A stretch of 32,000 nucleotides of DNA, taken from NCBI RefSeq assembly GCF_008000775.2, contig NZ_CP042905.2, forward strand, positions 1,590,001 to 1,622,000, in the 5' to 3' direction. Below, piece by piece: positions 1,217 through 32,000 of the stretch. This stretch comes from Promethearchaeum syntrophicum. Lineage in GTDB: Archaea > Asgardarchaeota > Lokiarchaeia > Sigyniarchaeales > Promethearchaeaceae. Each line of letters begins with the position of its first letter. Position 1 is the first letter of the stretch. The position numbers were made by a program, and so were the translations under genes. The notes beneath the pieces were generated by a model that saw nothing but the letters and a program-made list of their open reading frames with translations, searched no databases and was not told the DNA's origin.

Positions 1217-4198
1217 ATGGATGAATTTTCTGTAGATGAATCACAATTTGATTACAAACCCAAATATCGGATCTTTCATAGTTTAATGAAGAATCGAATA
1301 AAGGAGATATTACTGGTTTCAAGTGCATATGATAATTTCATTCTGGAAGAGGATGGGCGATTATCAGATCAGATTTACGCAGAATTTCATGATTTAAATT
1401 TGAGAACAATCCCTCATATCACGCGAGTTTCTTCAGCAAAAGGAGCTTTGGCGCGCCTCAAAGAGAATGAATTTGATTTAGTTGTTACAATGAGGAAGCT
1501 TTTTGATTCAGATCCCTTCGAATTTGGAAAGCAAATCAAAGAAATCCAAGATATTCCAGTTGTATTATTACTAACTAGTCTTTCGGATATTAATTTTATC
1601 CCAGATTTCACCAAATCTAAAGAAGGAATTGATTTAACTTTTTTATGGAATGGTGACAGTGCAATTTTCATTTCCTTAACAAAATTACTCGAAGATCGGA
1701 TGAATATTAAAGAAGATACTGAAAATGGTATGGTACGGGTAATCATCATCATTGAAGATAATATTCGATTTTATTCTGTGTATTTACCCCTTATTTATTC
1801 CGAAATAATGAGACAAATTCAATTGCTAATTCAAGAAGGTGTAAATGATTATTATCGTTTACTCCAAATGAAAGCGCGCCCTAAGATTATACTAACTCAT
1901 ACATACGAAGAAGCTATGAAATTCTATGAAGAATATAAAGAAAACGTTATTGGAATTATTTCTGATATTGAATTCCCCCGGAATAATAAAATAAATAGGA
2001 ATGCAGGGATAGATTTTATAAAAAGTATAAGAAAAGAAGCCCCAACAATCCCCGCAATATTACAATCTGCCAACCTTAAATGTGAAGGAAAAGCTTATGA
2101 GATACAAGCTCATTTTATTTATAAAAAGTCCAAAACGCTTCTAGAAGATATAAGAAAATTCATGGTCCGGTCTATGGGATTTGGAGATTTTATATTTCGA
2201 TTAAATAATGGAGAAGAAGTGGGTAAAGCTTCGAATTTACGTGAATTTAAAGAACAGATAGAAACTGTTCCTGTTGAATCATTATATTATCATGCAACAT
2301 ATGATAATTTTTCTGGTTGGTTGATGGCTCGGGGTGAATTTAGAGTAGCCTCAATTATAAAAGCAAAACATGTTGATGATTATGAAGATGATATAGCAAT
2401 TAGGAAATATTTAGCAGAATCTGTTCAATATTTATTAGTTGAACAAAAGAATATTATCACGGAATTCCGAAGGGTGAACTATAATCCCGACTCCAATTTT
2501 ATCAGATTGCGGCCTGGATCTCTTGGAGGTAAAGGACGTGGGCTTGCTTTTCTAATGTTTCTTCTCAATCCTTATAATATTGCAAGTAATAATTCCGTTG
2601 AGATAAATATCCCTCAAACCATTGCCATCGGAACTGAAGAATTTGATTATTTTATGACAAGTAACAATTTATATGAAATATCTTCCAGTCAAATAGAAGA
2701 AGAAGAATTAATTCAAATTTTTAAGAGAGCAAAATTATCTAAAACTCTGCGAGCAGATTTGAAATTTATTTTGAAGGACTGGAAAAACCATCCTATTGCT
2801 ATCCGGAGCTCTTCCATTGTTGAAGACTCCCAATTTCAGCCCTTTGCAGGTGTTTTCGGAACTTATATGATTTCCAACCAAGATAAAGATATAAATTCCC
2901 GATTAAATCGAGTTTTTGAAGCCATTAAGATGGTTTATGCATCTACATTTTCGAAAGCAGCAAAAGCTAATAGTGAAGCCCTTAATTTACGAATTGATGA
3001 AATTAAAATGGGAGTTATTATTCAAAAAGTTGTTGGGTTAAAATATGAAGCGAGTAATCATTTCTATCCCAATTATTCTGGAACGGCAAGCAGTTTTAAC
3101 TATTATACTGTCGGTAAAATGGAATCTCGGGATGGAAATGCATTTATTGCATTAGGCTTAGGGAGAACTATAGTTAATGGGGGACTTGCGAGAATGTTCT
3201 GCCCTACTTATCCCAAATTAAATATTTATTCCGATGTCCATGAGAGAATACAGCATAGCCAGAAAAATTTTTATGCAATTGATTTATCTAAAAAAGGAAA
3301 ACATATAATAAATGAAGAATCCTACCTTTCAAGGTTAAGTATTGCAGATGCAAAGAAAGATGGAACTTTATACAAAATTGCAGATTCCTATAATAGAAAT
3401 GATAATGTTATACAATCAGGATATTGGGATGAAGCTCATACACACCCAATAATCACTTTCGATCAACAAATTTTATATGATAAATCATTTCCATTACCTA
3501 AAATTATTAAAGATATTTTAGAATTAGGAGAGAAAACCATGGGATGCCCAGTTGAAATTGAATTTGCAGGTAATTTCAGGCAAAACGAAGACGAAAAACA
3601 CTCTTTAAATCTATTGCAAATTAGACCTTCCACTGAGATTCCCATGAAAGAACTCGGAAAATTTGATGATATTGTAAAGGAAGATATTTTAGCTCGTTCC
3701 ATCAATTTTTCAGGAAATGGGATCTATAAAAATATCCAAGATATAGTTTACATCAAGAGTTCTGCCTTTAGCACTCTAAAAACTGTAGAAATGGTTTCTG
3801 AGATTGATGAATTTAATAAAAAGTTAATTACGTGCCAAAAACCCTATCTTTTAATTGTTTTCGGACGTTTAGGCTCTTTTGATAAACATGTTGGGATTCC
3901 AGTAAAAGAATACAATATATCGAACGCTAAGGTAATTATTGAAACTGGAAAAGAAGGTTTTCAAATTGAACAAAGTCTGGGAAGTCACTTCTTTCAAAAT
4001 ATGGTATCAACCAAGACAGGCTTTCTTCATATAAAACATGATTCTGAAAACCAATTTCTTGATTGGAATTGGCTTAAAAAGCAAAAAATCACTGAAGAAA
4101 AACAATTTTTCACTCATGTAGAACTTTCGGATCCCTTAACCATTATTTTAGACGGTAGAAAGAAGATTGCAATTGTTAAAAAACCTGAAATGATTTGA
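1217..4198 (+). CDS. Tandem receiver-like domains fused to a PEP/pyruvate-binding (PPDK_N ATP-grasp) domain; no phosphohistidine swivel motif seen
   Basis: 993 aa. The N-terminal segment IKEILLVSSAYDNFILEEDG...FDLVVTM looks like a receiver domain, but Thr replaces the expected phospho-acceptor Asp. A second receiver (VRVIIIIEDN...VIGIISDIEFP...IPAILQSA) retains the Asp. RLRPGSLGGKGRGLAFL is the GGK(A/G) nucleotide-binding signature of PEP synthase/PPDK N-domains, and VEIEFAG...LNLLQIRP marks the end of the ATP-grasp. I did not see a TGGxTSHAA-type swivel His. Confidence 0.75.
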   Translation: MDEFSVDESQFDYKPKYRIFHSLMKNRIKEILLVSSAYDNFILEEDGRLSDQIYAEFHDLNLRTIPHITRVSSAKGALARLKENEFDLVVTMRKLFDSDPFEFGKQIKEIQDIPVVLLLTSLSDINFIPDFTKSKEGIDLTFLWNGDSAIFISLTKLLEDRMNIKEDTENGMVRVIIIIEDNIRFYSVYLPLIYSEIMRQIQLLIQEGVNDYYRLLQMKARPKIILTHTYEEAMKFYEEYKENVIGIISDIEFPRNNKINRNAGIDFIKSIRKEAPTIPAILQSANLKCEGKAYEIQAHFIYKKSKTLLEDIRKFMVRSMGFGDFIFRLNNGEEVGKASNLREFKEQIETVPVESLYYHATYDNFSGWLMARGEFRVASIIKAKHVDDYEDDIAIRKYLAESVQYLLVEQKNIITEFRRVNYNPDSNFIRLRPGSLGGKGRGLAFLMFLLNPYNIASNNSVEINIPQTIAIGTEEFDYFMTSNNLYEISSSQIEEEELIQIFKRAKLSKTLRADLKFILKDWKNHPIAIRSSSIVEDSQFQPFAGVFGTYMISNQDKDINSRLNRVFEAIKMVYASTFSKAAKANSEALNLRIDEIKMGVIIQKVVGLKYEASNHFYPNYSGTASSFNYYTVGKMESRDGNAFIALGLGRTIVNGGLARMFCPTYPKLNIYSDVHERIQHSQKNFYAIDLSKKGKHIINEESYLSRLSIADAKKDGTLYKIADSYNRNDNVIQSGYWDEAHTHPIITFDQQILYDKSFPLPKIIKDILELGEKTMGCPVEIEFAGNFRQNEDEKHSLNLLQIRPSTEIPMKELGKFDDIVKEDILARSINFSGNGIYKNIQDIVYIKSSAFSTLKTVEMVSEIDEFNKKLITCQKPYLLIVFGRLGSFDKHVGIPVKEYNISNAKVIIETGKEGFQIEQSLGSHFFQNMVSTKTGFLHIKHDSENQFLDWNWLKKQKITEEKQFFTHVELSDPLTIILDGRKKIAIVKKPEMI

Positions 4199-4224: not shown

Positions 4225-5847
4225 TTATATCATCTGGACAATAATGTTGAATTGCTTTATTTCAGATTCTCCTTGTTCTTTTCCAAAAGTGGTTAGAACT
4301 ACTTCATCAAGATTTTTAAGGTTAAAATCAGTTAATTTTCTATGTTGCGTGCGACCTCGTTCAAACAATGGATTGAAAATGAATTGCTTTGTTAGTGGAT
4401 TTGTTATAATCCAGTTTACATCATTTATTTTCTTATTAATTTCTCTGATAGCTTTGAAAAGCTCCCCCACAGTGGCATCAATAGGCACAACAACCGTGAT
4501 ATTTTCCTGTCCTTGTCGTGAACCACACCCTACACAGTCTTCACTTCGAGATATTGGAATTTGATCAAACAACCCATAGATGCCGCTGTAATTTAAATAT
4601 GGTGGGTTCATAATGGGTCCGACGGATGTTCCTGCTAGCAAAAATAATAATTTTGTTGCTTCTTGGGATTGGATAGATGCAATAATTGAGCTCACACTTT
4701 GAATTGCGGGGATTTTATTTCCTAAAATATTTTCCATATCTTCCAATGCGAATTCTCCTCCAAAAGTTTCAAAAATATTCTTTTTTAGAATTATTAGTTC
4801 ATTTTCTTCAATTTTTCCTTTCATTTCTGGGGGAATATTTTCGTCTAACACTCGAGCTCTTAGCTGGTCTAATTCTTTCTTGGCATATTCAAGCGTTTCT
4901 TTCATTTCTTCAATATTATCGTAATCAGGTTGGCGATCATATTTTTTGATAAACATTACTTCTCCCCGAATAGCGCAATGCTCCCTTGTTCTGGGAACAC
5001 CTTTCAAGGTACAAGCAGCAACTTGATTTTGGAGTGGAGGTGGAATTGGAACGACACATCTATAACAGGGAGTGCTTTGAAGATATTTTTCATATTTTAT
5101 GTAATTAGTTTCTACTTCCTTTTTAGCGCGCAGTTTCAGTTTTTCAAGAACTGGATTAATATTATTCATCTTGATATTTTCAATTTGTTGTTCGAGTGCC
5201 TCTATTGCTTTCTGAGCTCCAAAAAATTCTCCAAATTCTTCATTATCTTCATCTAGATTCCATAAATATTCATTAGCGAGGTCTTCAATAATTTTATCTT
5301 GATTTCCAAAAGAGAGAGGTTTTCCTGATACATCCTTCGCATTTTCTGGAATTATTACCTGTACGTGCCCATCAAAGCCAACAGTCCCCGCTTCGATCAA
5401 TGGGATCCCTAGCTTGAGGCAGAATTTATTCAAATCCATACGAGCTTGCACATTATCCAACGCAGCAATTACTATTTGACATTCTTTATATTTATCCATA
5501 GGAATTTGCTGCAAGGGGATGGTGAAAATCTCAATTTCCATAAACGGATTCATAAGTTTCAATCGTTCTGCACCTACATCCGCTTTAAACCGCCCTTCAT
5601 CTCCCTTATAGAACAGCATTTGTCGGGAGAGATTACTTGTTTCGATTCTATCCATATCACAGAGAATTAATTTTCCTATACCCGATAATGCCAAATCCTT
5701 CCCAACTTCGCACCCTAATGCTCCAACACCTGCAATAAATACTGTGCTATTTTTAATAACTTCTTGATCCCAGCCCTGAATTAATTTTTGGCGTTTAGTT
5801 CGTTCCTTTTCTTCTTGGGATAAAATTCGTTCATGTTTAATTTCCAT
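4225..5847 (-). CDS. Eukaryote-type ubiquitin-like-modifier activating enzyme (E1), UBA2/UBA3-like single chain
   Basis: 540 aa. Adenylation domain: IAGVGALGCEVGKDLALSGIGKLILCDMDRIETSNLSRQMLF (GxGxxG plus the NLxRQ motif of ThiF/MoeB/E1). CYRC...AACTLKGVPRTREHCAIRG parallels CYEC...GCTIRNTPSEPIHCIVWAK of UBA2 and PMCTIASMPRLPEHCIEY of UBA3. The catalytic Cys codon is at 5011..5013. A second zinc pair is CVGCGS. The C-terminal ~90 aa resemble a ubiquitin-fold (E2-recruiting) domain. Confidence 0.85.
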   Translation of the reverse strand: MEIKHERILSQEEKERTKRQKLIQGWDQEVIKNSTVFIAGVGALGCEVGKDLALSGIGKLILCDMDRIETSNLSRQMLFYKGDEGRFKADVGAERLKLMNPFMEIEIFTIPLQQIPMDKYKECQIVIAALDNVQARMDLNKFCLKLGIPLIEAGTVGFDGHVQVIIPENAKDVSGKPLSFGNQDKIIEDLANEYLWNLDEDNEEFGEFFGAQKAIEALEQQIENIKMNNINPVLEKLKLRAKKEVETNYIKYEKYLQSTPCYRCVVPIPPPLQNQVAACTLKGVPRTREHCAIRGEVMFIKKYDRQPDYDNIEEMKETLEYAKKELDQLRARVLDENIPPEMKGKIEENELIILKKNIFETFGGEFALEDMENILGNKIPAIQSVSSIIASIQSQEATKLLFLLAGTSVGPIMNPPYLNYSGIYGLFDQIPISRSEDCVGCGSRQGQENITVVVPIDATVGELFKAIREINKKINDVNWIITNPLTKQFIFNPLFERGRTQHRKLTDFNLKNLDEVVLTTFGKEQGESEIKQFNIIVQMI

Positions 5848-5950: not shown

Positions 5951-6388
5951 ATGAAAGACGAAATTAAACAAAAAATGATATTAATCTATTATATAAATGG
6001 AATAATATTTGCAACCATTTTCTTCTTTGTGTTTAAAAATATTTTCTTACCAGCCGCTATAGTGGTTTCTGTGTTTATTGCAGTAATTTTTACATCAATG
6101 GGATGGGGTATTTTTTATTTAAACACCTATTTTAAAATTAATCACCACCATCAAAAACCGAATTTATTAATGGTGCTTCTGTCATCGTTTATTTATTTAA
6201 TTCCTGCTGGAATTATATGCTATAACATTTTTACAAAGAAATATTCAAATATTATTGCAAATTTTCAGAAAGGAAATACTAAATATAAGAAGCAGATTAC
6301 CACTAATGGAATAAAATGTCAAAAATGCAATAATTTCAATATAGGGAATGGTAATTTCTGCATTCAATGTGGATATAAATTAAAATAA
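5951..6388 (+). CDS. Small polytopic membrane protein with C-terminal CX2CX10CX2C zinc finger (zinc_ribbon_2 / RanBP2-NZF-like spacing)
   Basis: 145 aa with three hydrophobic segments, then CQKCNNFNIGNGNFCIQC at 6317..6370. The gene is divergent from the E1 gene across a 103-bp spacer. Confidence 0.6.
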   Translation: MKDEIKQKMILIYYINGIIFATIFFFVFKNIFLPAAIVVSVFIAVIFTSMGWGIFYLNTYFKINHHHQKPNLLMVLLSSFIYLIPAGIICYNIFTKKYSNIIANFQKGNTKYKKQITTNGIKCQKCNNFNIGNGNFCIQCGYKLK

Positions 6389-6436: not shown

Positions 6437-7039
6437 TTAAAATCCTTGTTCTTTCAGATAATTAAAATTGAATTTATATGCTGAAATAAGTAAATCATTT
6501 GTTAAAACATGAACATTCTTTCCATCTAAAGAACTGATGATGTAAAAATTGGGAATATCTAATCGTTCTGCAAGTTCAATCATTGTTTCCATCGCTCTCT
6601 CTTCACGTTCTGGGGCAATTAAATCAGATTTCGTTGCCACTAACAATAATGGTGAACCCTTTGGGGCATTATCCTTCCAAATTGAAAACCATTCATCTAT
6701 ATAATTTGTAGTAGAGTAGCGAGTAATGTCATATAATAAAAGTCCGCAGACAGATCCTTTGCAGTAGCGAGGTAACATGAACCTGAATCGTTCTTCTCCG
6801 GCAAAATCCCAGATTTGGGCTTGAATTGGAATCTGTGGGACATCATCAGCATATTGGGAAGCAAATGGGTCGAAAATGGATGTCTTTAAAAGATGAAAAT
6901 CGACGCCGATTGTCATCTTCGTCGTCGAATCGAAAGCGCCGGTGATTATCCTTTTAGTAAGAGTGGTTTTTCCAACCCCTCCTTCACCTAAAATACAAAC
7001 TTTTAATACATTCTTTGAATTTCTTGCTCTAGCAACCAA
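6437..7039 (-). CDS. Rab-like small GTPase (Ras superfamily)
   Basis: 200 aa. G1 is GEGGVGKT. The G2/RabF-like segment is TIGVDF. G3 is WDFAGEERF (compare Rab WDTAGQERF). G4 is TKSD (compare NKxD). G5 is SSLDG. The start is TTG, preceded by a GAGGGAG Shine-Dalgarno-like element. There is no C-terminal Cys prenylation motif. Confidence 0.85.
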   Translation of the reverse strand: MVARARNSKNVLKVCILGEGGVGKTTLTKRIITGAFDSTTKMTIGVDFHLLKTSIFDPFASQYADDVPQIPIQAQIWDFAGEERFRFMLPRYCKGSVCGLLLYDITRYSTTNYIDEWFSIWKDNAPKGSPLLLVATKSDLIAPEREERAMETMIELAERLDIPNFYIISSLDGKNVHVLTNDLLISAYKFNFNYLKEQGF

Positions 7040-7181: not shown

Positions 7182-9485
7182 GTGGAGAATTATAAGAAAC
7201 AAAATAGAAATAAAAATCCTTCAACGTCATCATTATCCCGTAATTATTCTGGATCAGTTGCGTATTTTACGCCCACAGAATTAGTAGATTGTATTCTTAG
7301 CGGGATTGATTTTTTCCTTCTACATATATATAAGAATTCTTCAGGTATTTGTGGAGATAATTTAGAATTCATTGAACCTGCAGCGGGGTTAATGATTTTT
7401 CCCCTCAAATTGATCGAATATGTAAAAAAAAGGACTAAATCTGAAGAATTTAATGCTTGGATTTCAAAAATTTTATTGAAAAATCTTCATGCATTTGAAA
7501 TCAATCCAGAAATCTATAAATCGGCTAATTTTTTATGGAATCAGAAAATTAAAAACTATCTCCATCTAAAATCTGCAAAAGACTTAAAATCCAATCTCTA
7601 TTGCAAATCTTCTATCAAAATAAACGAAAAAGATGATTCACTGATAAGTAAAATACCCTTTAACTCGAATGATATTTTAATTGTCTTTGGAAATCCCCCT
7701 TATGCTGTAAGTAGCCAAGTTAAATCACCTTGGATCCAAGAATTAATCAATGATTACAAAAAAGACCTTAACAGAGAAGGAAAAAAAAAAATATTGGGTC
7801 TTAAGGGGATTCAAGATGATTATGTGAAATTTATTCGAATGGCGCAATGGAAAATTGTAGACCAAAAAAATGCAGGAATTCTTGCATATGTCGTAAATAA
7901 TTATTTTTTGGATGGAGATATCTTTCGTGGTATGCGGGTATCTCTGAAAAATGCATTCGATGAAATTTGGATTATTAATCTTCACGGTGATCCAAAGAAA
8001 AAACAATCTAATAAAGTGGATGAAAATGTTTTTGACATACAAACAGGAATTTGTCTTTTTTTCGCTCTTAAATATACAAATGAAAAAACATCTTCACGTA
8101 ATGAAAAAAACTGTAAAATTTTCTACAGCGAATGTTTTGGCTCAAAAGCAAAAAAATTAAAATTTCTTAAAAAAAATTTTAGAGAAATTTCATTTCAAAG
8201 CGTCCCTGAGCGTGTAGATCATGAATTTATTCCTATATCTCAAGAAAAAATTGAACTTGAACACAAGTACAATGACTTCCCATATATACCCAAAATATTT
8301 AAAAAAAATATAATAGGGGTTCAAAGTTTACATGATAGTCTTATTACTCACCCAGATTATTCGCGTTTGAAGGAAATTATCAACAACTTCTATGATGGGA
8401 CCTATTCTAAATTGGAGTTCAAAGATAAAAAAGGTCAAAAATGGGTTAAACATCTAGGGGTTTCTTACCACGACGCCAGAGATTGGAAAATTGAGTTCGG
8501 GCTGAAAGGTTCGGTAAAAAAAGCCATAGATAATATTATTAAATGGCAATGGCGTGGATTTGATAGATGGTGGGTTTCCTATGATGAACATTTGATCACT
8601 AAAGGATCCAGTAGTTATAGTTTAATGCAATTCTTGCTTCCACATCAAAACAATTTGGCAATTGGGGTATCCCGAGTTTCGCGAAAAGCATCCGGAGAAA
8701 ATAGCGTATTTATTACAAATACCATTGCTGAATCCCATTTCATTGAGGGTGGATCTGGAATTGGAGATTATCTCTTTCCCTTAAAAATAAAAAGTAATCT
8801 TAAGCGAATAAGTGATTGGGAGCGTCCCTTGAATGCTGAGGAATATAATTTTGATCGCGATTTTCTTGAAAATTGGAAAAAACAATTCGCGCTCGATGAG
8901 GAAGATTTGTTTTATTATATTTATGGTATTTTATGGACTCCTGGATACCGAAATCAGTATGGAATGTTCCTAAAAAAAGATTTCCCGCATATACCCTTTA
9001 TTTTTCAACCGAACCAAACAAAAAAAATTGCTGATATCGGACGAGAATTATGTAAATACCATACTCTTTCTTTTTCTTCTTCAAAAGAGATTCGAGATTG
9101 GCCCATAAATTCGAATTTTTTAGAAAAAACCTACAATATTTACAATATATATTATGATCCAGACCAAGAAAGGATATATTTTGAAAATCCCATTAACAAA
9201 ACAAAAAGGAATGAGAAAACCAGAAATAATCACACTTTTTATTCAAGTGAAACTTTCTGGATAGGGAATATTACTCTTGAAATGTGGTCTTTCTCAATTG
9301 GTGGAATTCCCCAACTTCGTTTATGGCTGAAAAATAGACAATTTACTACAGAAATTAAGAAATATTCCTTCAATAGGGGGATTGACAAGGAAGAACTTCA
9401 TCTTTTCCTTAAAATTTGTATATCGATTAAAAAATCCTTAAATCTAGTTAAAAATCTAGATAAATATTATCAAAATCGGTTGTAA
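7182..9485 (+). CDS. N6-adenine DNA methyltransferase of the type ISP / Eco57I-like lineage with a type-ISP-like C-terminal domain; no nuclease or helicase part
   Basis: 767 aa with a GTG start. YFTPTELVD; motif I-like IEPAAGLMIF (7371..7400); LHAFEINPEIY; motif IV NPPY (7692..7703); DDYVKFIRMA; GILAYVVNNYFLDG...RGMR...FDEIWIINLHGD. The C-terminal WSFSIGGIPQLRLWLKNRQF (9285..9344) matches the 'W.f.iGGy.v..kWLK.R' signature of type ISP/PglX-like C-terminal domains. Confidence 0.75.
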   Translation: MENYKKQNRNKNPSTSSLSRNYSGSVAYFTPTELVDCILSGIDFFLLHIYKNSSGICGDNLEFIEPAAGLMIFPLKLIEYVKKRTKSEEFNAWISKILLKNLHAFEINPEIYKSANFLWNQKIKNYLHLKSAKDLKSNLYCKSSIKINEKDDSLISKIPFNSNDILIVFGNPPYAVSSQVKSPWIQELINDYKKDLNREGKKKILGLKGIQDDYVKFIRMAQWKIVDQKNAGILAYVVNNYFLDGDIFRGMRVSLKNAFDEIWIINLHGDPKKKQSNKVDENVFDIQTGICLFFALKYTNEKTSSRNEKNCKIFYSECFGSKAKKLKFLKKNFREISFQSVPERVDHEFIPISQEKIELEHKYNDFPYIPKIFKKNIIGVQSLHDSLITHPDYSRLKEIINNFYDGTYSKLEFKDKKGQKWVKHLGVSYHDARDWKIEFGLKGSVKKAIDNIIKWQWRGFDRWWVSYDEHLITKGSSSYSLMQFLLPHQNNLAIGVSRVSRKASGENSVFITNTIAESHFIEGGSGIGDYLFPLKIKSNLKRISDWERPLNAEEYNFDRDFLENWKKQFALDEEDLFYYIYGILWTPGYRNQYGMFLKKDFPHIPFIFQPNQTKKIADIGRELCKYHTLSFSSSKEIRDWPINSNFLEKTYNIYNIYYDPDQERIYFENPINKTKRNEKTRNNHTFYSSETFWIGNITLEMWSFSIGGIPQLRLWLKNRQFTTEIKKYSFNRGIDKEELHLFLKICISIKKSLNLVKNLDKYYQNRL

Positions 9486-9817: not shown

Positions 9818-9890
9818 TAGCCTCTCAAGGATTCGAACCTTGGTCAGCGGGGTCAAGGCCCGCGATGCTTGGCCACTACACTAAGAGGCT
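9818..9890 (-). tRNA. tRNA-Gln (anticodon UUG), no intron, CCA not encoded
   Basis: Hand-folded cloverleaf from the reverse complement: AGCCTCT TA GTGT AGTGGCCAA GCAT C GCGGG CCTTGAC CCCGC TGAC CAAGG TTCGAAT CCTTG AGAGGCT A. It has a 7-bp acceptor stem with an A1:U72 pair (typical of archaeal tRNA-Gln), a GTTCGAATC T-arm, and TTG in the middle three positions of the anticodon loop. Confidence 0.8.
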
Positions 9891-20954: not shown

Positions 20955-22151
20955 GTGATTAATATGGAACAAAGCAAAATTTCTGGGTACAAAATAAGAT
21001 TGGGGATTCGTTCTAAGCTCATTTTTCTGTTGTTAGTATTCCAAATATTAGTTTTTATGCCTTTTATATTAAATATAAATAATGCAAATGCAGTTAGTGG
21101 TGGAACTCCTGGAGAACGTACGGGGCAACAAATGATTTATGATCCAATATTGGATGAAATTGTATTATATGGGGGTAATCGCGGTAATGGGGTTCGCTCA
21201 TCCTTAGATACAGTGTGGAAATATTCTATTTCAGATTCACAATGGAGAGAAATTTCTTCGGAAACTACGCCCGTATCACGATTTAGTCACCATATGGTCT
21301 ATCTGCCCATAAATCGAAGTATATTTCTTTTTGGGGGATGTAAAACTTCGGATTATGAAAGGTTGGGTGATACATGGCTCTATAACCTCGATAATAACAC
21401 TTGGGAAGAAGTATCACCATCTGTAAGTCCTTCCGCCCGTAGCGATTTGGCTCTCTGTTATGATTCTCTCAAGAATCGGGTTCTGTTGTTTGGAGGGTAT
21501 AATTATGATGACAGTAAGCTGAATGATTTATGGGTGTATTATCCCAATAATAATTCTTGGACTGAATTGGCTCCGAGTTCATCTCCCCCAAGTGATTACG
21601 GACATTCTCTATTTTATCGGAATAATGGGGGGGATGTATATACATTTGGGAGAAGCTCGACTCAAAACATAAATGATCTTTGGGAATATGACACTTCCGC
21701 TAATTCTTGGGCGAAAATGACTGTAGCATCCCCCATACCCTCATATAGATATTGGCACAACATGAGATACTCAAATATTTCAGATGTTTGTCTCCTCTTC
21801 GGAGGGAGTAGTTTTAATGTTGATAAGGATGACAGTTGGATTTTTAATTTTACAACTGATTCGTGGACCGAAATTCAATCAGATAATAATCCACCTAACC
21901 GGGTTGTGTTTTCAATGTGTCATGATTCACATCGAGACCAAATTTATATGTATGGAGGATTAGGAGAAGATTACAGCATATGCCGGGAAGATTTTTGGAA
22001 ATTCAATTTTACTTCGATGATATGGGAGGAAATCGAGATGCCTTCTAACTCTTCGATTAGTGGTTATAAATTTTTAGATCTGTGCTTCTACAGTTTAATA
22101 AGTTTACCATTTCTAATCTATATTCGAAAAAAAAAGTGGAAATCTCAGTAA
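20955..22151 (+). CDS. Membrane-anchored Kelch-repeat beta-propeller protein
   Basis: 398 aa. The signal peptide ends in ...NNANA|VSG. About six Kelch-like repeats follow, each with GG...(D/N)(L/T)W.Y......W motifs (LYGGN...TVWKY...SQW; LFGGC...DTWLY..NTW; LFGGY..NDLWVY...NSW; NDLWEYD...NSW; LFGGS...DSWIF...DSW; MYGGL..EDFWKF...MIW). A C-terminal TM segment plus an RKKKWK stop-transfer sequence closes the protein. The GTG at 20955 or the ATG at 20964 could be the start. Confidence 0.75.
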   Translation: MINMEQSKISGYKIRLGIRSKLIFLLLVFQILVFMPFILNINNANAVSGGTPGERTGQQMIYDPILDEIVLYGGNRGNGVRSSLDTVWKYSISDSQWREISSETTPVSRFSHHMVYLPINRSIFLFGGCKTSDYERLGDTWLYNLDNNTWEEVSPSVSPSARSDLALCYDSLKNRVLLFGGYNYDDSKLNDLWVYYPNNNSWTELAPSSSPPSDYGHSLFYRNNGGDVYTFGRSSTQNINDLWEYDTSANSWAKMTVASPIPSYRYWHNMRYSNISDVCLLFGGSSFNVDKDDSWIFNFTTDSWTEIQSDNNPPNRVVFSMCHDSHRDQIYMYGGLGEDYSICREDFWKFNFTSMIWEEIEMPSNSSISGYKFLDLCFYSLISLPFLIYIRKKKWKSQ

Positions 22152-25636: not shown

Positions 25637-27091
25637 TTGCAATTGAGCGAAAATAATTATCAAAAATTATTGCAGAAAGCAAACTTACTAGAAAGTCGTG
25701 ATTTATTAAAATGTTTACAAAATCTCCTTGAATGTGTTCAGTTATTAGAAGAAGATCCCGATATAATTAAAAATTCAAAAAGAGAGAAAGAAATTCTAAA
25801 ATTACGAATTTTACGATTAGGAAATAAACTCAATGTTGATTATTCTTTGGATTCAGATTCAAAAGAATCTGACGAAGTAGAAGCCGTTAAAGAATCTAAA
25901 GAAGCAGAAGAAGCTGAAGAAGCAGAAGAAGGCGAAGAATCTAAAGAAGCAGAAGGAGCTGAAAAAGCAGAAAAAGCAGAAGAAGTAGAAATAGCTAAAG
26001 AACCCGAAGAAGTAGAAACAGCTAAAGAACCTGAAGAAGTAGAAGTAGCGAAAGATTCTGAAGAAGTAGATGCAGCTAAAAAAGATGTAGAAACTGTAGA
26101 AAAATCTGAAATTGTTGATTTAATCTATTCCAAATTAAAAAAGAAAATATCTATATCCTATAACGAATATCTTTCATTTTATAAATATGTAAACAAATCT
26201 AATTCTGAAGAACCAGTACCAATTATTCGCGAAGAAGGTGAAATTGCATATTTTGTAGGAGACACACATGGTTCCTATGAAGAATCTCTGATTGTTATTA
26301 ATTATTTTGAAAAAATCCTCGAAAAATCTCCTGATGCGAAAATAATATTTGATGGTGACTACGTAGATCGAAACTTATATGATTTGGAAAACTTGACTTT
26401 AATTACTGCATTCTTTCTTCTCTACAAAAATAATGTAGTAATGCTTAGAGGTAATCATGAAGATCAAAAGATAAATAAATATTACGGATTTTACCGAAAT
26501 TTAAAAGATTTTTTCATCATTCAAGATCGGATTGATGAGATTTATGGATTGATTTTAAATTTCTTTATGAGCTTACCTGTTATTCATATTTTAACTTTGA
26601 AAACTAGCAATAATGAATTGAAAAAAATTTTTACTGTACATGGAGGGATTCCAATTGATGAAAAAAATCCTTCTAATCCGATAGCCTTAGATGATTTAGA
26701 ATCTAAAATACAGATTAAAGTTCCTTCTTATGAAGAGTTCGATGATTATATGAGTTGGCTTCTTTGGTCTGATCCAAAAGATAATGTTGCAGATTATGAA
26801 TTACGTCCAGAATCTGGTAGAAATTTCTTTGGAGAGTCAGCTTTTCAAAGATTTATGGATTTTAATAAATTAGACTTAATGGTTAGAGCTCATGAAATTT
26901 TAGAACAAGGTTATAAATTTTTCTTCAATCAAAGACTAATTAGTATATTTTCCACTTCCTTTTATAAAAATAAAAGAATAGGAAATGCAGCGATTATGCG
27001 AATGAAAGAAATTAATGGTTCTTTTGACACGCCCGAATTTTTACCTGTAAATGAAGCTGCTTTGAATCAAGATATTAAAGATAATTTTTAG
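25637..27091 (+). CDS. PPP-family Ser/Thr protein phosphatase with an acidic repeat N-terminal extension
   Basis: 484 aa. Catalytic motifs: GDTHG, GDYVDRN (GDxVDRG with G to N), LRGNHE, VHGG, LLWSDP, VRAHE and ISIFSTSFY. There is no in-frame ATG upstream of the catalytic core. Candidate TTG starts are at 25637, 25643 and 25670. Confidence 0.8.
   Translation: MQLSENNYQKLLQKANLLESRDLLKCLQNLLECVQLLEEDPDIIKNSKREKEILKLRILRLGNKLNVDYSLDSDSKESDEVEAVKESKEAEEAEEAEEGEESKEAEGAEKAEKAEEVEIAKEPEEVETAKEPEEVEVAKDSEEVDAAKKDVETVEKSEIVDLIYSKLKKKISISYNEYLSFYKYVNKSNSEEPVPIIREEGEIAYFVGDTHGSYEESLIVINYFEKILEKSPDAKIIFDGDYVDRNLYDLENLTLITAFFLLYKNNVVMLRGNHEDQKINKYYGFYRNLKDFFIIQDRIDEIYGLILNFFMSLPVIHILTLKTSNNELKKIFTVHGGIPIDEKNPSNPIALDDLESKIQIKVPSYEEFDDYMSWLLWSDPKDNVADYELRPESGRNFFGESAFQRFMDFNKLDLMVRAHEILEQGYKFFFNQRLISIFSTSFYKNKRIGNAAIMRMKEINGSFDTPEFLPVNEAALNQDIKDNF
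25850..26107 (+). repeat. In-frame acidic low-complexity / tandem repeat block inside the phosphatase gene
   Basis: GAAGCAGAAGAAGCT-type 9/18-nt units encode EAEEAEEAEEGEESKEAEGAEKAEKAEE. About three and a half units of ~30 nt then encode (K/E)EPEEVE.A (EEVEIAKEPEEVETAKEPEEVEVAKDSEEVDAAKKDVE). Confidence 0.8.
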
Positions 27092-27975
27092 AATTGGCGT
27101 TGACAGCCAGTGCAAGCTGCATTTGAAGAATCTATTACATGTCCACATTGATAGCAATATCTATAATTTGCAAAATCATTCCATGATTGACTTGGAAACC
27201 ATTTAAAATACGGATATGTTACTTTTGAAGATACTTCATCAGCTATAGGTTTTATTGAAGGTTGAGGAATTGGTTCTGGTAAGGAAATTACAACAGATTC
27301 TTCTAGTTCTTCTTTAAAGGATTCCATTTCTTCTTCAGGTAATGATAAATTCCCAATCATTATATCCCCTTCATTCATCATATCTTCTTGTGATGGTTCT
27401 GCTGGTGGGGCAGAAGGACTGGTACCCTTCAATGAATTTGATAATCCTTTGCTTAATTGGGATTGTTTTTTCTCTAAATTCTCTTGTCCCGCTTCTACTT
27501 CAAAAGCATCCTTAATTAGATTAATTTTTTTAAAAACACTTAGCTTTGCAATTTTTGAAACTGAAGGATTAAATGCAAATTGATAAATATTAATAAAGAA
27601 AAGCGCGTCTTCATAGATTGAATAGGATTTAATTGGTAATATGCTTAAAAATTGTTGGCCTTCTTCAAAGAATTCATCGAGCTTTGATTTAAAAGTGAGT
27701 AAATTTTCTCCCATAGGTTTTTTTTTAATAGCCTTACTGAATTCTAATAGCTTGGGTTGAACTTTTTGGGAAAATTTTAAAATAAGACCGTTTAATAAAC
27801 TCTTGTCATCCTTAGAAAGTGTTGGATCTTTGACCCCGTCTAAACAAATCCTCCTAACTTTCATCCATTTTAATAAAAATAAGTCTAAATCTGATACGGG
27901 TTTTGACACGGGCTGTAAATTTTCAATTTCTTCTAAGATTGTTAGTAATTGGATTTTTTGTTTTTTCCAAATCAT
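27088..27975 (-). CDS. Hypothetical protein: helical N-domain, acidic Pro/Ser linker with PSAP and 2x SLPE, C-terminal CX2CX10CX2C zinc ribbon
   Basis: 295 aa. PSAP is encoded at 27406..27417. The linker contains EDMMNEGDIMIGNLSLPEEE and VISLPEPIP. CYQCGHVIDSSNAACTGC is at 27103..27156. The stop codon overlaps the phosphatase stop by 4 nt. Confidence 0.6.
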   Translation of the reverse strand: MIWKKQKIQLLTILEEIENLQPVSKPVSDLDLFLLKWMKVRRICLDGVKDPTLSKDDKSLLNGLILKFSQKVQPKLLEFSKAIKKKPMGENLLTFKSKLDEFFEEGQQFLSILPIKSYSIYEDALFFINIYQFAFNPSVSKIAKLSVFKKINLIKDAFEVEAGQENLEKKQSQLSKGLSNSLKGTSPSAPPAEPSQEDMMNEGDIMIGNLSLPEEEMESFKEELEESVVISLPEPIPQPSIKPIADEVSSKVTYPYFKWFPSQSWNDFANYRYCYQCGHVIDSSNAACTGCQRQF

Positions 27976-28105
27976 TTTCTAAATATCAAAAGATAATATG
28001 TACTTAATATATTTATCATTGGTCCGATAGTTGGTCCAGCAAAGACTTAAAAGAAAATAATTTCTTCGCGTTATATAAGGAACTTTTGAAAGTTGGAATA
28101 TTACA

Positions 28106-29071
28106 ATGGCAATGAACATAGTACAATTTAATGAGAAATTCAAACAATATATGAATGATGTTCGTATAATAGAAAAAACTCATCCTCGCGAATCCATCGG
28201 GCTCTGGCTTCGAATTTGCCAATTTATTATTAATTTTGCCAAAAGTCCAAATTGTCCAATAAATTTAAGGAAGAAATTAATATTTCAAGCTGAAAATATT
28301 ATTCAAAAAGTGAGATCTTTTAGTGATGGAGAAATTTCTTCTGTATTTGACTCTAAAACTATACATAAACAATCTACAACTACTGAAAATGAACAGAAAT
28401 CAAATGTTCCCTTTGCAGTTGGCGGACTTCCCTCAGAATCAGAAAAAACTTCTGACGACGATATGCTAAATCAGTTAATGTCTTTACCTGAGACTCCTGA
28501 AGATATTATTGAAGAAATAACGACGACAGAATCTCCAGGCAGTTCTGCAGCAGCTCCACCATCTGAACATCCAAGTGCTCCTTCATCTCAAGACGCAGAC
28601 AGTAGTAATCAAGAAGATTTATCAAAACTTCAAAAACTTGAAGAAACTTTAAAGCAAATGCCTAAAAGCTTTAAAGAAATAAAGCCGCTGCCTTTTTCGA
28701 GTACTAGCATAATCCCCGAATTAAGACCTGATAATTCCCAATTAAATTTAAATGATTATAAAAAAGATACTCAGACGTTAGATATCACATCTTCTGTTCC
28801 TGAAGTTAGTGAAAATCCACCCGACCTAAGCCAACCCTCAAAAATTCCCTTTGAAAAAGGAAAAAATATTAATATAGCAAGGTATGATTCGGATCCCTTC
28901 AAAACCCCTAAACAACAAGAATCTAATGTTAAGGATCCTTTCGGACCAAAAGCTGCCACTGATAGTAGTGATTTAAAGTTATCAAAAAAAATTTGTTTTG
29001 CATGTGGTGCTAGCTTAGAAGAAGGAGTTTTTATCTGTGCTGAATGCGGTGCTGACAATAAGAATTTATAA
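28106..29071 (+). CDS. Hypothetical protein: MIT-like three-helix N-domain, acidic Pro/Ser linker with SLPE, PSAP and 2x DPF, C-terminal CX2CX10CX2C zinc ribbon
   Basis: 321 aa. N-terminal residues 1-72 (…RESIGLWLRICQFIINFAKSPNCPINLRKKLIFQAENIIQKVRSF) follow the heptad pattern of Vps4-type MIT domains. DDDMLNQLMSLPETPED is in the linker. PSAP is at 28571..28582, and DPF at 28892..28900 and 28934..28942. CFACGASLEEGVFICAEC is at 28994..29047. Confidence 0.6.
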   Translation: MAMNIVQFNEKFKQYMNDVRIIEKTHPRESIGLWLRICQFIINFAKSPNCPINLRKKLIFQAENIIQKVRSFSDGEISSVFDSKTIHKQSTTTENEQKSNVPFAVGGLPSESEKTSDDDMLNQLMSLPETPEDIIEEITTTESPGSSAAAPPSEHPSAPSSQDADSSNQEDLSKLQKLEETLKQMPKSFKEIKPLPFSSTSIIPELRPDNSQLNLNDYKKDTQTLDITSSVPEVSENPPDLSQPSKIPFEKGKNINIARYDSDPFKTPKQQESNVKDPFGPKAATDSSDLKLSKKICFACGASLEEGVFICAECGADNKNL

Positions 29072-29114
29072 AAATATCCATAATTTTATTATTTGATGAA
29101 AATTTCCAATAATC

Positions 29115-30074
29115 ATGGGTAATAACCAGAAAGTTCTCGTAACTGGAGGGGCTGGTTTTATTGGGAGTCATTTAGTTGACGCCTTAATTAACAATGGCCA
29201 TTTTGTTATTGTTCTTGATAACCTAATTGAAGGTCATTTGGAAAATATTCAAAATCATATTGATAGTGGAAAATGTCAATTCAAAAAAGAAGATATTCTA
29301 AATCTGGAATTTTTACTTGAGAAATTACCTAAAGTTGATGTTATTTATCATTTCGCAGCTGATCCGGATGTTCGATTAAGCGTTCCCAATCCATTAAATT
29401 CTTTTAAACAAAATGTACAAGGCACTTTGAATGTTTTGGAATATGCAAGGAAATATAAGATTAACAAATTCATTTTTGCATCATCAGGTGGAACTGTATA
29501 TGGTGATGTAAATTCATTTCCTATGACTGAAAAATTGGTTCTAAATCCAATTAGTCCGTATGGAGCATCCAAGGTTGCAGGGGAAATGTATCTTGCGGCC
29601 TATGCATCTTCTTACCATATTAAATCTGCTTCAGTAAGGTTTGCAAATATTTTTGGTGAAAGATCTCTGCATGGAGTTGGTTATGATTTTTTTAATCATT
29701 TGAATGAAAATCCAACAATACTAAAGATATTAGGCGATGGAACACAGAAGAAGTCATATTTACACGTTTCTGATGCGATCAATGGGGTTCTATTGGTTTC
29801 TGAGAACCTGAATAATCAAGAAAGCTGGTACGATTTCTTTAATCTTGGGTCAGAGGATTGGTTTACTGTTAATGAAATTGCAAATATTTATGAAAAAGAG
29901 CTAAATCTTTTCAATGTGAAGCATTCTTATTCTGGTGGCTCGAAAGGATGGGTTGGTGATGTAGCACAAATGATGCTTTCTATCGATAAAGTGAAAAAAA
30001 TAGGATTTTTACCGAAAGTATCATTTGTAGAAGGCGTCCATCGCTATTGCGAATGGTTAAAGAATAATGCATAA
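29115..30074 (+). CDS. NAD-dependent nucleotide-sugar epimerase/dehydratase (extended SDR, UDP-glucose 4-epimerase-like)
   Basis: 319 aa. VLVTGGAGFIGSHL is the Rossmann motif. SSGGTVYG and the catalytic YGASK are present, with a C-terminal substrate domain. Confidence 0.85.
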   Translation: MGNNQKVLVTGGAGFIGSHLVDALINNGHFVIVLDNLIEGHLENIQNHIDSGKCQFKKEDILNLEFLLEKLPKVDVIYHFAADPDVRLSVPNPLNSFKQNVQGTLNVLEYARKYKINKFIFASSGGTVYGDVNSFPMTEKLVLNPISPYGASKVAGEMYLAAYASSYHIKSASVRFANIFGERSLHGVGYDFFNHLNENPTILKILGDGTQKKSYLHVSDAINGVLLVSENLNNQESWYDFFNLGSEDWFTVNEIANIYEKELNLFNVKHSYSGGSKGWVGDVAQMMLSIDKVKKIGFLPKVSFVEGVHRYCEWLKNNA

Positions 30075-30089: not shown

Positions 30090-30344
30090 TTATTCAGGAA
30101 TTCGATATTTCTTAGTTGCTTCATCATAAATATAGATTCCATTGTGAATACCTCTTTCTATTATTTTTAATGTCTTGCTTTTATATCTTGGAATCCCTTT
30201 GCTATTTAAATCCGAAGAACCGCATAATTCTTCCCCAAATCGCTCAAAAATTGCTGTATATATCTGTTCTATGTTTTTCCCAAACCCTAAAAATTCAAAT
30301 AAAAAACCCTCGATCAAATTTGACCTAAGTTTGCATTCACCCAT
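30090..30344 (-). CDS. Small hypothetical protein, possibly winged-helix (Mrr_N/HARE-HTH-like)
   Basis: 84 aa with an ATG start and protein-like composition. The tail ...YKSKTLKIIERGIHNGIYIYDEATKKYRI resembles the recognition helix plus wing of small wHTH domains. Two overlapping plus-strand ORFs look like low-complexity noise. Confidence 0.4.
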   Translation of the reverse strand: MGECKLRSNLIEGFLFEFLGFGKNIEQIYTAIFERFGEELCGSSDLNSKGIPRYKSKTLKIIERGIHNGIYIYDEATKKYRIPE

Positions 30345-30454: not shown

Positions 30455-31771
30455 TTAATTGAATATTTCAATTCCATCTTCGGTTACAATAAAGGTTTTT
30501 TCAAATTGACTGACATAAGCACCTTTTTGCTCTCTTAATTCATAATGCTTATGCAATTTGCCCGCAGTAGTTAGTTCTCGTAAAGCCATTTTTCCAGTGC
30601 GAAATTCTTTCAATAATTCACGTGTGGAAAACGGAAGAGTTTTCTTTATGTTTGCGATCCACCCAATTACTTGGCGAGTTATTTTCATACGGATTGGAAC
30701 ACGCTCAGAATTTAAATCATATTCATAGATATTGCAATTTGTTCCATTGTGAATATTTCCTAGCCCAGTAGATGCAAAACATTCTAACGCAAATACATCC
30801 CCTTCTTCGAAAACATCTCCGCTGGAAATTCCTACACTAGGGATGGATTTAAAGCCATGTACTTGCCATTTCTCTAAAGAATGTCCGCGTAAATCTTTGA
30901 TTGGATTATACCCAAAACCTCTGATTATTTTGGCAGTCGTCTTTCCCACTTCAATTGTTTTAACTCCGGGTTTAATTATAGATAATCCTTTCATAACTGC
31001 GGTTTCTACAGCAGTAACTAAATTTGCTGTGGCTGGATCTTGATTAAAGGAAACAGAAAATGCGCCATCTGCAACGTATCCCTCCACTGATACTCCAATA
31101 TCAACTTTTACCACATCTCCTTCTTTTATAACTGATTCATCATTTGGAGGGCTTGAGTAATGAGCTGCAATTTCATTGATACAAACATTCGTTGGGAATC
31201 CGATTTCCCCCCCAAGTTCTATAAGTTTACTTTCAGTTTGTTCACAAATATCAAGTAACTTTGCCCCGATCTTGACTTTTGGTTTAATAAATTTTATTAC
31301 CTGTTTATGGATTTCCCCCGCTTTTTTAAACGAATCATAACGCAATTTTTTTTCTTTTTCTTCTTCTTCTTTTTGGGTTTTTTCTTCTTCAGTTAATTCC
31401 TTTTCTGCCTTTTCTTCCTTCTCTTCTTTCTTTACTTTTTTAGTTTGATTTTTAGGTTTTTGAACCTGTTTTTTAGAAGAGGTTTTACTTACTCCTTTCT
31501 TAACTACAGCTTTTGAAGTTTTCGCTGTTGATGGCTTTTTAACTACGCTTTTTGTAGTTTTTTTAGTTGAAGTTTTTTTTGAAATTTTTTTTGTAGTTTT
31601 TTTGGAAGTTTTCTTCTTGACAGACTCTTTAATTACTTTTTTAGTTGAACTCTTTGCTGGTTTTTTAACATCTTTCTTAGAAAGCTTCTTTGTTGTCTTC
31701 TTAGTAGTCTTTTTTTTTGTAGACTTCTTTACTGCTTTACTCGATTTTTTAGGAGGAGTCATTATTTTCAT
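30455..31771 (-). CDS. map: Type-2 methionine aminopeptidase (MetAP2) with a ~140-aa Lys/Ser/Thr-rich then Glu/Lys-rich N-terminal extension
   Basis: Catalytic core: AGEIHKQV..., FPTNVCINEIAAHYSPPNDESVIKEGDVVKVDIGVSVEGYVADGAFSV, RGHSLEKWQVHGFKSIPS, ALECFASTG and SQFEKTFIVT (the pita-bread metal ligands D, D, H, E, E). The start is placed at the ATG at 31771 (alternative 31762). The ORF-track start at 31900 adds a hydrophobic 43-aa leader and would overlap the divergent gene that starts at 31890. Confidence 0.85.
   Translation of the reverse strand: MKIMTPPKKSSKAVKKSTKKKTTKKTTKKLSKKDVKKPAKSSTKKVIKESVKKKTSKKTTKKISKKTSTKKTTKSVVKKPSTAKTSKAVVKKGVSKTSSKKQVQKPKNQTKKVKKEEKEEKAEKELTEEEKTQKEEEEKEKKLRYDSFKKAGEIHKQVIKFIKPKVKIGAKLLDICEQTESKLIELGGEIGFPTNVCINEIAAHYSSPPNDESVIKEGDVVKVDIGVSVEGYVADGAFSVSFNQDPATANLVTAVETAVMKGLSIIKPGVKTIEVGKTTAKIIRGFGYNPIKDLRGHSLEKWQVHGFKSIPSVGISSGDVFEEGDVFALECFASTGLGNIHNGTNCNIYEYDLNSERVPIRMKITRQVIGWIANIKKTLPFSTRELLKEFRTGKMALRELTTAGKLHKHYELREQKGAYVSQFEKTFIVTEDGIEIFN
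31340..31759 (-). repeat. In-frame low-complexity block: KK(T/S)xKK repeats (31427..31759) followed by an E/K-rich segment (31340..31426)
   Basis: PPKKSSKAVKKSTKKKTTKKTTKKLSKKDVKKPAKSSTKK...KKVKKEEKEEKAEKELTEEEKTQKEEEEKEKK, encoded by A/T-rich imperfect repeats. Confidence 0.8.
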
Positions 31772-31874
31772 TATTTTTAAAGAACGATAAGATTTTAAAT
31801 TTCGCACAAAAGTAATAAACAAAATTAATAAACAGAACAATACAAAATATAAATTAATTATTAATTTTGGATAG

Positions 31875-32000
<126 letters not shown>

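Follow-up and report, generated by a model that had tools for sequence, protein, structure and literature searches.

A conserved Lokiarchaeial gene pair encoding zinc-ribbon proteins with MIT-like and MIM2-like features: candidate ESCRT-III/Vps4-associated adaptors

We analysed a stretch of 32,000 nucleotides of the Promethearchaeum syntrophicum (MK-D1) genome (contig NZ_CP042905.2, positions 1,590,001 to 1,622,000; hereafter the window, whose own numbering is used for all coordinates). The window carries two adjacent genes, here called A and B. Gene A (DSAG12_02032; 27088..27975, minus strand) encodes a protein of 295 residues whose helical N-region leads, through an acidic linker, to a zinc ribbon at the C-terminus. 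Gene B (28106..29071, plus strand) encodes a protein of 321 residues in which an MIT-like domain is followed by a linker carrying short motifs and then by a zinc ribbon. A preliminary description of this DNA had proposed the two proteins as ubiquitin adaptors of ESCRT (complexes of endosomal sorting that are required for transport), in part because each linker contains a PSAP tetrapeptide. We suggest that A and B, conserved as neighbours, act as scaffolds or adaptors; the pair has so far been seen only in Lokiarchaeia. The idea of an ESCRT-linked adaptor is plausible, and it now rests on the MIT-like domain and on a motif resembling the MIT-interacting motif (MIM) of class 2, MIM2, instead of on PSAP.

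Gene pair, layout and distribution

The two genes diverge from a 130-bp spacer (27976..28105). This spacer is AT-rich, with TATA-like boxes about 30 nt 5' of each start codon; by direct reading, these are ttatataa near 28069 and aaatatattaag on the minus strand near 28003-28014. Re-derivation of the open reading frames (ORFs) confirmed the divergent arrangement and recovered every previously listed motif at its position. Protein A is a 100% match to P. syntrophicum DSAG12_02032 in a sequence search. No Rfam family and no notable DNA repeat was detected within 26900..29200. When the full sequences of A and B were compared to Pfam, weak zinc-ribbon matches were obtained and nothing else. We found no paper mentioning the two loci, and neither a text search with locus tags nor the supplements of ESCRT surveys contained these genes. 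The layout proposed for both proteins, in which a helical domain is followed by an acidic disordered linker and a terminal zinc ribbon, is upheld by sequence and by AlphaFold2 models, that of A being of low confidence.

Sequence comparison identified 17 further homologues of B; the identity is 65-82% for 16 of these and 37% for the last. An exhaustive profile search with B (1.84 billion representatives, E<=1e-3) retrieved 80 proteins. About 70 of these share both the N-terminal domain (profile positions 3-74) and a C-terminal ribbon of the CFACG type. The remaining matches are multi-zinc-ribbon proteins in which only the ribbon is matched. All members of the B family with a named source belong to Promethearchaeota or Lokiarchaeia, save one labelled "archaeon". 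Their annotations read hypothetical or "zinc ribbon domain-containing", and the close homologues of A and B have no precomputed Pfam domain on record. For A, word-indexed searches for further homologues, including one using a profile with the divergent orthologue of contig L001, returned nothing new. The distant A orthologues were obtained as neighbours of B orthologues, on a JGI contig (L001, 622-1614) and in Lokiarchaeum ossiferum (L007, 3999-4931), Promethearchaeota HM1_B6_4 (L008, 3878-4792) and Harpocratesius repetitus (L010, 4007-4936). In total, A has orthologues in four named lineages of Lokiarchaeia and on an unclassified metagenome contig.

The gene order phosphatase-A-B-epimerase is kept in these same four lineages and on the metagenome contig. 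In lineages other than the Promethearchaeum clade, both genes point the same way, with ~30-210 bp between them. The head-to-head orientation seen in that clade is derived and reflects an inversion of A. Of the head-to-head pairing noted at the outset, the adjacency is therefore conserved but the divergent transcription is not.

Domains and motifs of proteins A and B

Residues 1-75 of B (28106..28330, plus strand) carry the main structural evidence. The AlphaFold2 model shows helices 5-25, 27-46 and 52-73, with a predicted local distance difference test score (pLDDT) of ~80-88. An antiparallel three-helix bundle of ~70-80 residues is the MIT fold, and this is what AlphaFold2 and Foldseek give for the B N-domain. 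Using Foldseek against the PDB, the top matches were the MIT domains of VPS4B, VPS4A and yeast Vps4, with target-normalised TM-scores of 0.63-0.70 and root-mean-square deviations (rmsd) of 2.1-3.5 Å; none of the matches is significant, the E-values above 3 being as expected for a bundle of 70 residues.

Two other approaches point to the same domain. A family profile built from 58 N-domains was compared to the PDB. Its best natural matches were the MIT domain of calpain-7 (E 0.014), that of VPS4A in two entries (E 0.09 and 0.12), and that of VPS4B (E 0.58). The VPS4A and VPS4B scores were reproduced by a local rerun. The alignment with the VPS4A MIT domain is collinear over all three helices, positions 14-73 of the family profile facing residues 12-72 of VPS4A. 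When the 58 N-domains were scanned singly, 11 matched Pfam MIT (PF04212), with a best E-value of 6.8e-5, and the next-best family was matched by 4. Full-length members of the B family cover positions 7-66 of the 66 positions of the Pfam MIT profile at ~15 bits, below the 30-bit cut-off. Because these three independent and individually weak lines (fold, family profile, Pfam per member) agree, the N-terminal bundle of the B family is most likely a divergent MIT domain, in line with the first reading of this region. VHS, FYVE, GAT and UIM domains were found neither in A nor in B using Pfam, even at E<=10.

Beyond the bundle, AlphaFold2 gives low confidence to most of B, exceptions being helix 161-184 and the ribbon. 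Residues 79-292 are probably disordered for the most part and make up an acidic Ser/Pro-rich linker of ~220 residues. The linker contains an acidic amphipathic stretch followed by a MIM2-like core, DDDMLNQLMS-LPETP-ED (28454..28504, plus strand, aa 117-133), which includes the SLPE previously noted (aa 126). Residues M120, L124, L127 and P128 are invariant among close orthologues, and DDMLNQLMSLPETP is conserved in the alignment of B with its 17 further homologues. At the family level, 32 of 59 representatives have [LFV]Px[VIT]P at the aligned site, where shuffled linkers predict 2.25. With few exceptions the pattern is present in a single copy, 20-60 residues past the N-domain, amid an otherwise unalignable linker. 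The aligned motif consists of acidic residues, a hydrophobic residue, two variable positions, a second hydrophobic residue and then [LF]-P-x-[VIT]-P, as in LPETP, LPDIP, FPDVP, LPSVP, LPEVP or LPKVP.

The published MIM2 consensus is phi-P-x-phi-P-x-x-P-phi-P. The MIM2 of CHMP6 is IELPEVPSEPLP, in which P171, V173 and P174 are essential, and Sulfolobus CdvB has LLPELPHPP. The LMS-LPETP-ED segment of B contains the core phi1-P1-x-phi2-P2 together with the preceding acidic and hydrophobic residues. SLPE of B belongs to this conserved [LFV]Px[VIT]P element, whose pattern matches the MIM2 core; the resemblance and the strong positional conservation make the element a candidate MIM2-like motif. In some B subfamilies only, a further x-x-hydrophobic-P follows, as in LPDIPTHLPE or LPNVPKDIPT.

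A second conserved region of the linker was absent from the preliminary description. This central block (28613..28789, plus strand, aa 170-228) starts with the helix DLSKLQKLEETLKQ, continues with MPxxFKEIxPxPF...IIP and ends with NLxxYKKDTxTLDIT. The segment DLSKLQKLEETLKQMPKSFKEIKPLPFSS...KKDTQTLDIT is conserved with many invariant columns, and E191 is nearly invariant across the whole family. The block matches the MIT-like domain in conservation and resembles nothing we can name. In the AlphaFold2 model, helix 161-184 reaches a pLDDT of 86. Such confidence in a shallow alignment might mean that the helix packs on the MIT-like bundle. Residues 171-184 (DLSKLQKLEETLK) were also considered as a MIM1, whose consensus is (D/E)xxLxxRLxxL(K/R). 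This was rejected on direct reading, the leucine spacing being 3-3-4 versus 4-3 in the consensus.

Closer to the ribbon, B has the two DPF tripeptides of the preliminary description (28892..28948, plus strand), at aa 263 and 277, 14 residues apart. The first lies in SDPFK (aa 263-265) and the second in DPFGP (aa 277-281), which is invariant among orthologues. Of 58 representatives, 31 have a DPF no more than 40 residues away from the ribbon, with 0.65 expected, and the spacing is tight, 18-21 residues. Ligands of adaptor appendages carrying DP[FW] lie in disordered regions, usually in variable number and position. The spacing of DPF, fixed at ~20 residues before the ribbon, fits a component of the zinc-ribbon module better than a free ligand of appendages.

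Both terminal CX2CX10CX2C ribbons are present as first described. That of A (CYQCGHVIDSSNAACTGC; 27103..27156, minus strand, aa 274-291) is the end of a larger C-terminal module, WFPS...RYC-x2-C-x10-C-x2-C (27103..27201, minus strand, aa 259-291), in which W259, P261, R272 and the four cysteines are invariant. It gives weak Pfam matches to Zn_ribbon_3 and DZR. That of B (CFACG-x..-C-x2-C, CFACGASLEEGVFICAEC; 28994..29047, plus strand, aa 297-314) has four cysteines invariant across 52 aligned family members. B itself matches Pfam Zn_ribbon_3 (E 0.0011), and two members of its family exceed the gathering score of Zn_Ribbon_1. The two ribbons align with each other in hhalign (probability 78%, E 1.9e-5).

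The preliminary description related these ribbons to ubiquitin-binding fingers of the NZF type. The C-x2-C-x10-C-x2-C spacing and the zinc-ribbon fold are indeed those of NZF, and in Foldseek the B ribbon superposes on the TRABID, TAB2 and RanBP2 fingers with an rmsd of 0.9 Å over 24 residues (E>3). The NZF/RanBP2 signature is W-x-C...C-x3-N, with ubiquitin contacts made by T-F...hydrophobic. On direct reading, B has KKI-CFAC-GASL...C and A has YRY-CYQC-GHVI...C, with no W, N or TF. Zn_ribbon_RanBP of Pfam was matched only at E 0.15-0.54, in two members of the B family. From their sequences, the ribbons are classified as the common prokaryotic Zn_Ribbon_1/DZR/Zn_ribbon_3 type, and the NZF assignment is abandoned.

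The helical N-region of A (27430..27975, minus strand, aa 1-182) is less clear. AlphaFold2 predicts it as all-helical to residue ~182, followed by disorder, with low confidence (mean pLDDT of the A model, 46). The model may contain two MIT-like three-helix units (1-85 and 88-160), an arrangement that is unproven. Comparison of A with the MIT-like profile of the B family using hhalign gave probabilities of 25% (residues 1-59) and 14% (91-154), at which level a tandem MIT assignment was rejected. No Pfam or PDB sequence match was found for this region. An early profile comparison had aligned B 1-143 with A 88-228 (probability 73%, E 3e-5). With broader profiles, the match was reduced to the zinc ribbons alone. 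The common layout of A and B holds; paralogy of their N-domains is unproven, because the broader profiles align nothing but the ribbons.

The linker of A contains an acidic motif, DIMIGNLSLPEEE (27328..27366, minus strand, aa 204-216), of the form hydrophobic-x-[LFM]-P-[DE]-E. SLPE occurs in A at aa 211 and 231. All 8 aligned A sequences, which represent five lineages, share P213 and E215 without exception. The distant A orthologues all keep this form as well as the WFP...RYC-x2-C...C-x2-C end. In the early A-B alignment, the motif faced MLNQLMSLPE of B. Compared to MIM2, it has only hydrophobic-P-[DE]-E, without the second proline.

The PSAP tetrapeptides are found in A at aa 187-190 (27406..27417, minus strand) and in B at aa 156-159 (28571..28582, plus strand), both in regions of low pLDDT, as expected of P[ST]AP ligands in disordered segments. 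PSAP appeared in ~1% of composition-preserving shuffled linkers for each protein, and P[ST]AP was found in none of the other ORFs when 25 window ORFs were scanned. The double occurrence is unusual under this composition null. Conservation weighs more heavily as a test, and PSAP does not pass. In B, the tetrapeptide is absent from all 17 homologues, including those at 82% identity. The corresponding position reads PPIEP or PPVEP in orthologues of 72-82% identity, and HPVDP or PPVTP in others. Among ~70 representatives of the B family, one true member has any P[ST]AP. The B PSAP is probably a chance occurrence. In A, SPSAP and NEGDIMIGNLSLPEEE are invariant in 12 close homologues, and the second SLPE-containing segment, VISLPEP, is not. 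Outside the Promethearchaeum clade, the PSAP position reads ISAP on the L001 contig and SNVP in L. ossiferum, and it is absent in HM1_B6_4 and Harpocratesius. PSAP is therefore private to MK-D1 in B and to the Promethearchaeum clade in A, and is not part of a conserved mechanism. Among the short motifs initially singled out, the SLPE-type element and the second DPF correspond to conserved columns, but PSAP does not.

Lokiarchaeia and Thorarchaeia are reported as the Asgard lineages without UEV-Vps23. A 2025 preprint on MK-D1 (bioRxiv 10.1101/2025.11.01.685982) describes ubiquitin, ESCRT-II, ESCRT-III (CHMP4-like and CHMP1-like) and VPS4; the term UEV is absent from it. Together with the lack of conservation in A and B orthologues, the reported lack of UEV-Vps23 argues against PSAP being a functional UEV ligand.

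Genomic surroundings

The gene directly upstream of A in all five lineages encodes a PPP-type metallophosphatase (25637..27091, plus strand; Pfam Metallophos E 6.8e-20). In MK-D1, its stop codon and that of A overlap by 4 nt (27088-27091). The protein has a conserved helical N-extension of ~70 residues (Y8, ANL-ES, RI..L); its long linker consists of acidic repeats (EEAEEAEE / EEPVIEE). Its gene lies at 2647-3909 in L. ossiferum (L007), 2384-3871 in HM1_B6_4 (L008) and 2214-3698 in Harpocratesius (L010). The N-extension was also considered as MIT-like and this was rejected, with an hhalign probability of 5% and no MIT match in PDB or Pfam. Directly downstream of B, in all lineages examined, is a gene for an NAD-dependent epimerase/dehydratase (29115..30074, plus strand; Pfam Epimerase E 2.4e-51). 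It is followed by an 84-aa ORF without Pfam match (30090-30344, minus strand). A gene of 84 residues occupies the same post-epimerase position on a Promethearchaeum-like contig (L002, 7981-8235).

Two distant members of the B family, P0067 and P0085 (L011, 5449-8948; L012, 4961-8666), are divergent from a gene for a ~630-aa TPR protein. The two loci share a neighbourhood comprising Ribosomal_S30, MoCF_biosynth and AIRS. At L011, genes for a JAB/MPN-like protein and for a further DZR zinc-ribbon protein also lie close to the B-family member. The eukaryotic AMSH architecture combines MIT with JAMM.

Elsewhere in the window, a 540-aa ThiF/E1-like protein (4225-5847, minus strand) has a large insertion within its ThiF match. 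Beside it are encoded a small hydrophobic unrelated protein that ends in a CX2CX10CX2C zinc ribbon (5951-6388, plus strand) and, nearby, a Ras/Roc-family small GTPase (6437-7039, minus strand). These three genes may belong to a cluster of the ubiquitin-like or eukaryotic-signature-protein kind. A Kelch-repeat beta-propeller protein of 398 aa (20955-22151, plus strand) has strong matches to eukaryotic-type Kelch proteins (KLHDC2/KLHL20, E 1.9e-61). An M24 metallopeptidase resembling methionine aminopeptidases (30455-31900, minus strand) bears a long Lys/Thr/Ser-rich N-extension (KKTTKKTTKK...) followed by an acidic block, which recalls the polybasic and acidic N-extension of eukaryotic MetAP2. 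The enzyme is also found at L008 (7490-8737) and L010 (8498-9625), with an extension that varies among lineages. At the other end of the window, a 993-aa protein (1217-4198, plus strand) combines a weakly matched response-regulator receiver with a PPDK_N ATP-binding domain, and is preceded by a shorter PPDK_N-like ORF (275-1171, plus strand). A 767-aa protein (7182-9485, plus strand) contains the C-terminal specificity domain of Type ISP restriction enzymes (E 2.5e-45). Its gene is followed by a tRNA-Gln (TTG) gene (9818-9890, minus strand), the only RNA gene found in the window.

Possible roles and relation to known systems

We propose, with a probability of about 0.4, that A and B are Lokiarchaeial modular adaptors associated with ESCRT-III and Vps4 through their MIT-like and MIM2-like elements, possibly linked to the adjacent PPP phosphatase. 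Partners for MIT and MIM contacts exist in MK-D1, since ESCRT-III and VPS4 are encoded there according to the preprint, whereas a receptor for PSAP is undocumented in this organism. From the observed architecture, motif conservation, synteny and fold resemblance, we infer the following binding steps. The MIT-like domain of B would dock on MIM-bearing C-terminal tails of the host ESCRT-III subunits. The MIM2-like motif could engage the Vps4 MIT domain or, in cis, the MIT-like domain of B itself as an autoinhibitory switch. The end of the protein carrying DPF and the zinc ribbon may tether a further partner or surface, and the Ser/Thr-rich linker might be controlled by the phosphatase encoded directly upstream.

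Several observations count against this proposal. The MIT scores are weak one by one (Foldseek E>3; PDB profile E 0.01-0.6; ~15 bits in Pfam for a 30-bit cut-off), three-helix bundles match easily by fold, and the B N-domain of the window itself has no Pfam match. Some designed helical repeat proteins rank above the MIT domains when the family profile is compared to the PDB. The C-terminal half of MIM2, x-x-P3-phi3-P4, is missing from MK-D1 B, which continues LPETPEDIIEE, and about half of the B family has no MIM2-like motif. The N-region of A is not assignable, given its poor model and 14-25% hhalign probabilities, and the match between A and B shrinks to their ribbons. None of the B-family loci examined adjoins ESCRT genes. 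A rival explanation is that of generic proteins made of a helical bundle and a zinc ribbon, whose function is unrelated (nucleic-acid binding or other scaffolding, for example) and whose likeness to MIT and MIM2 is convergent: the MIT matches all fall below curated or significance thresholds, and such C-terminal ribbons are common, a third one being encoded in the window at 5951..6388. We consider this explanation somewhat less probable than the adaptor proposal, as three independent methods converge on MIT specifically and not on arbitrary helical folds, the VPS4A alignment runs through the three helices without a break, and LPx[VI]P is strongly conserved in sequence and in position.

A role tied to the phosphatase would make A and B its regulatory or targeting subunits, or its substrates, with linker motifs serving for docking or phospho-regulation and no part in ESCRT. 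The constant position of the phosphatase gene next to A, the short gaps and co-orientation outside the Promethearchaeum clade, which make an operon possible, the similar layout of the phosphatase (helical N-extension and acidic repeat linker) and the Ser/Thr-rich linkers of A and B all agree with it. However, gene order alone is no proof of physical interaction, and distant members of the B subfamilies lie elsewhere, beside genes for a TPR or a JAB-like protein, without the phosphatase. Direct reading revealed no recognised PPP docking motif: calcineurin-type motifs (LxVP, PxIxIT) were rejected, LPxVP being distinct from LxVP, and RVxF is also absent. We regard this role as unlikely when taken on its own. 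The two ideas are not exclusive, phosphatase or kinase genes accompanying some archaeal ESCRT loci according to the literature. As for the ESCRT-0-like cargo adaptor initially imagined, PSAP would recruit UEV and ESCRT-I, the ribbon would bind ubiquitin as an NZF and DPF would bind adaptor appendages. The low chance of PSAP in each linker, its invariance in A among 13 orthologues of the Promethearchaeum clade and the superposition of the ribbon on the TRABID and TAB2 NZF speak for it. Adaptin-appendage-like domains are also known in Asgard ESCRT-I-related proteins, and such multidomain proteins have been proposed as functional analogues. Nevertheless, PSAP vanishes even in the closest B orthologues and in A from the four distant loci, a UEV-Vps23 is reported missing from the lineage, the ribbons have neither the W...N nor the T-F/hydrophobic residues of NZF/RanBP2 and score as Zn_Ribbon_1/DZR, VHS, FYVE, UIM and GAT are lacking, and DPF is locked to the ribbon as if part of that module. 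The ESCRT-0-like idea is very improbable and already largely refuted by the conservation data.

Returning to the ESCRT-III/Vps4-associated adaptors, some twenty MIT-domain proteins of eukaryotes bring enzymes or adaptors to ESCRT-III polymers via MIT-MIM contacts. To our knowledge, and in the literature that we searched, the only characterised archaeal MIT domain is that of Vps4/CdvC. More tentatively, the B family, and perhaps A, may represent the first described archaeal non-ATPase MIT proteins, Asgard-specific adaptors with an MIT domain and an internal MIM2-like motif that would bridge or gate ESCRT-III and Vps4, possibly under phosphatase control. If so, the MIT-MIM network recruiting accessory proteins to ESCRT-III began to diversify in Asgard archaea, before eukaryogenesis. 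A and B are concrete candidates for experiments, MK-D1 and L. ossiferum being cultured and MK-D1 ESCRT proteins having already been expressed heterologously. The analysis also removes a tempting and unsupported claim, that of a PSAP-UEV, ESCRT-0-like pathway in MK-D1.

Among known systems, the NZF/RanBP2 fingers of Npl4, TAB2 and TRABID share with A and B the CX2CX10CX2C spacing and the close superposition of the zinc-ribbon fold. In contrast, A and B have no Trp before Cys1, no Asn after Cys2 and no T-F/hydrophobic residues, and belong with the Zn_Ribbon_1/DZR/Zn_ribbon_3 families of Pfam. ESCRT-0 (Vps27/Hrs-STAM) and the P(S/T)AP late-domain adaptors recall the MK-D1 proteins by a disordered linker with PSAP and by a multi-motif adaptor character; they differ in their VHS, FYVE, UIM and GAT domains, in a PSAP that is unconserved in A and B, and in the UEV-Vps23 that the Lokiarchaeial lineage is reported to lack.

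The MIM2-bearing ligands of Vps4 (CHMP6/Vps20, Sulfolobus CdvB, yeast Vfa1 and HCMV (human cytomegalovirus) pUL71) also show parallels. As in the B family, an acidic segment leads to phi-P-x-phi-P, and LPEIPS, LPDVPD and LPSVPE of B-family members can be compared with LPEVPSE of CHMP6 and LPELP of CdvB. Unlike in these ligands, the B motif lies in the long internal linker of a non-ESCRT-III protein that itself bears an MIT-like domain. MK-D1 B and most of its family lack the second proline pair, and A has the shorter hydrophobic-P-[DE]-E. Finally, the eukaryotic MIT adaptors and enzymes (MITD1, spartin, USP8, AMSH, calpain-7, ULK3 and Vta1/LIP5) have a comparable overall design. None of them has the small prokaryotic-type zinc ribbon of A and B, and with respect to them the similarity of the B family is below family thresholds, its known occurrence is limited to Lokiarchaeia/Promethearchaeota and its ESCRT-III binding is putative. 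Like these proteins, B has an N-terminal MIT-type bundle followed by a linker and a different C-terminal module, with a presumed recruitment to ESCRT-III via MIM, and the MIT domains of calpain-7 and VPS4A/B are the best natural PDB matches to the B profile.

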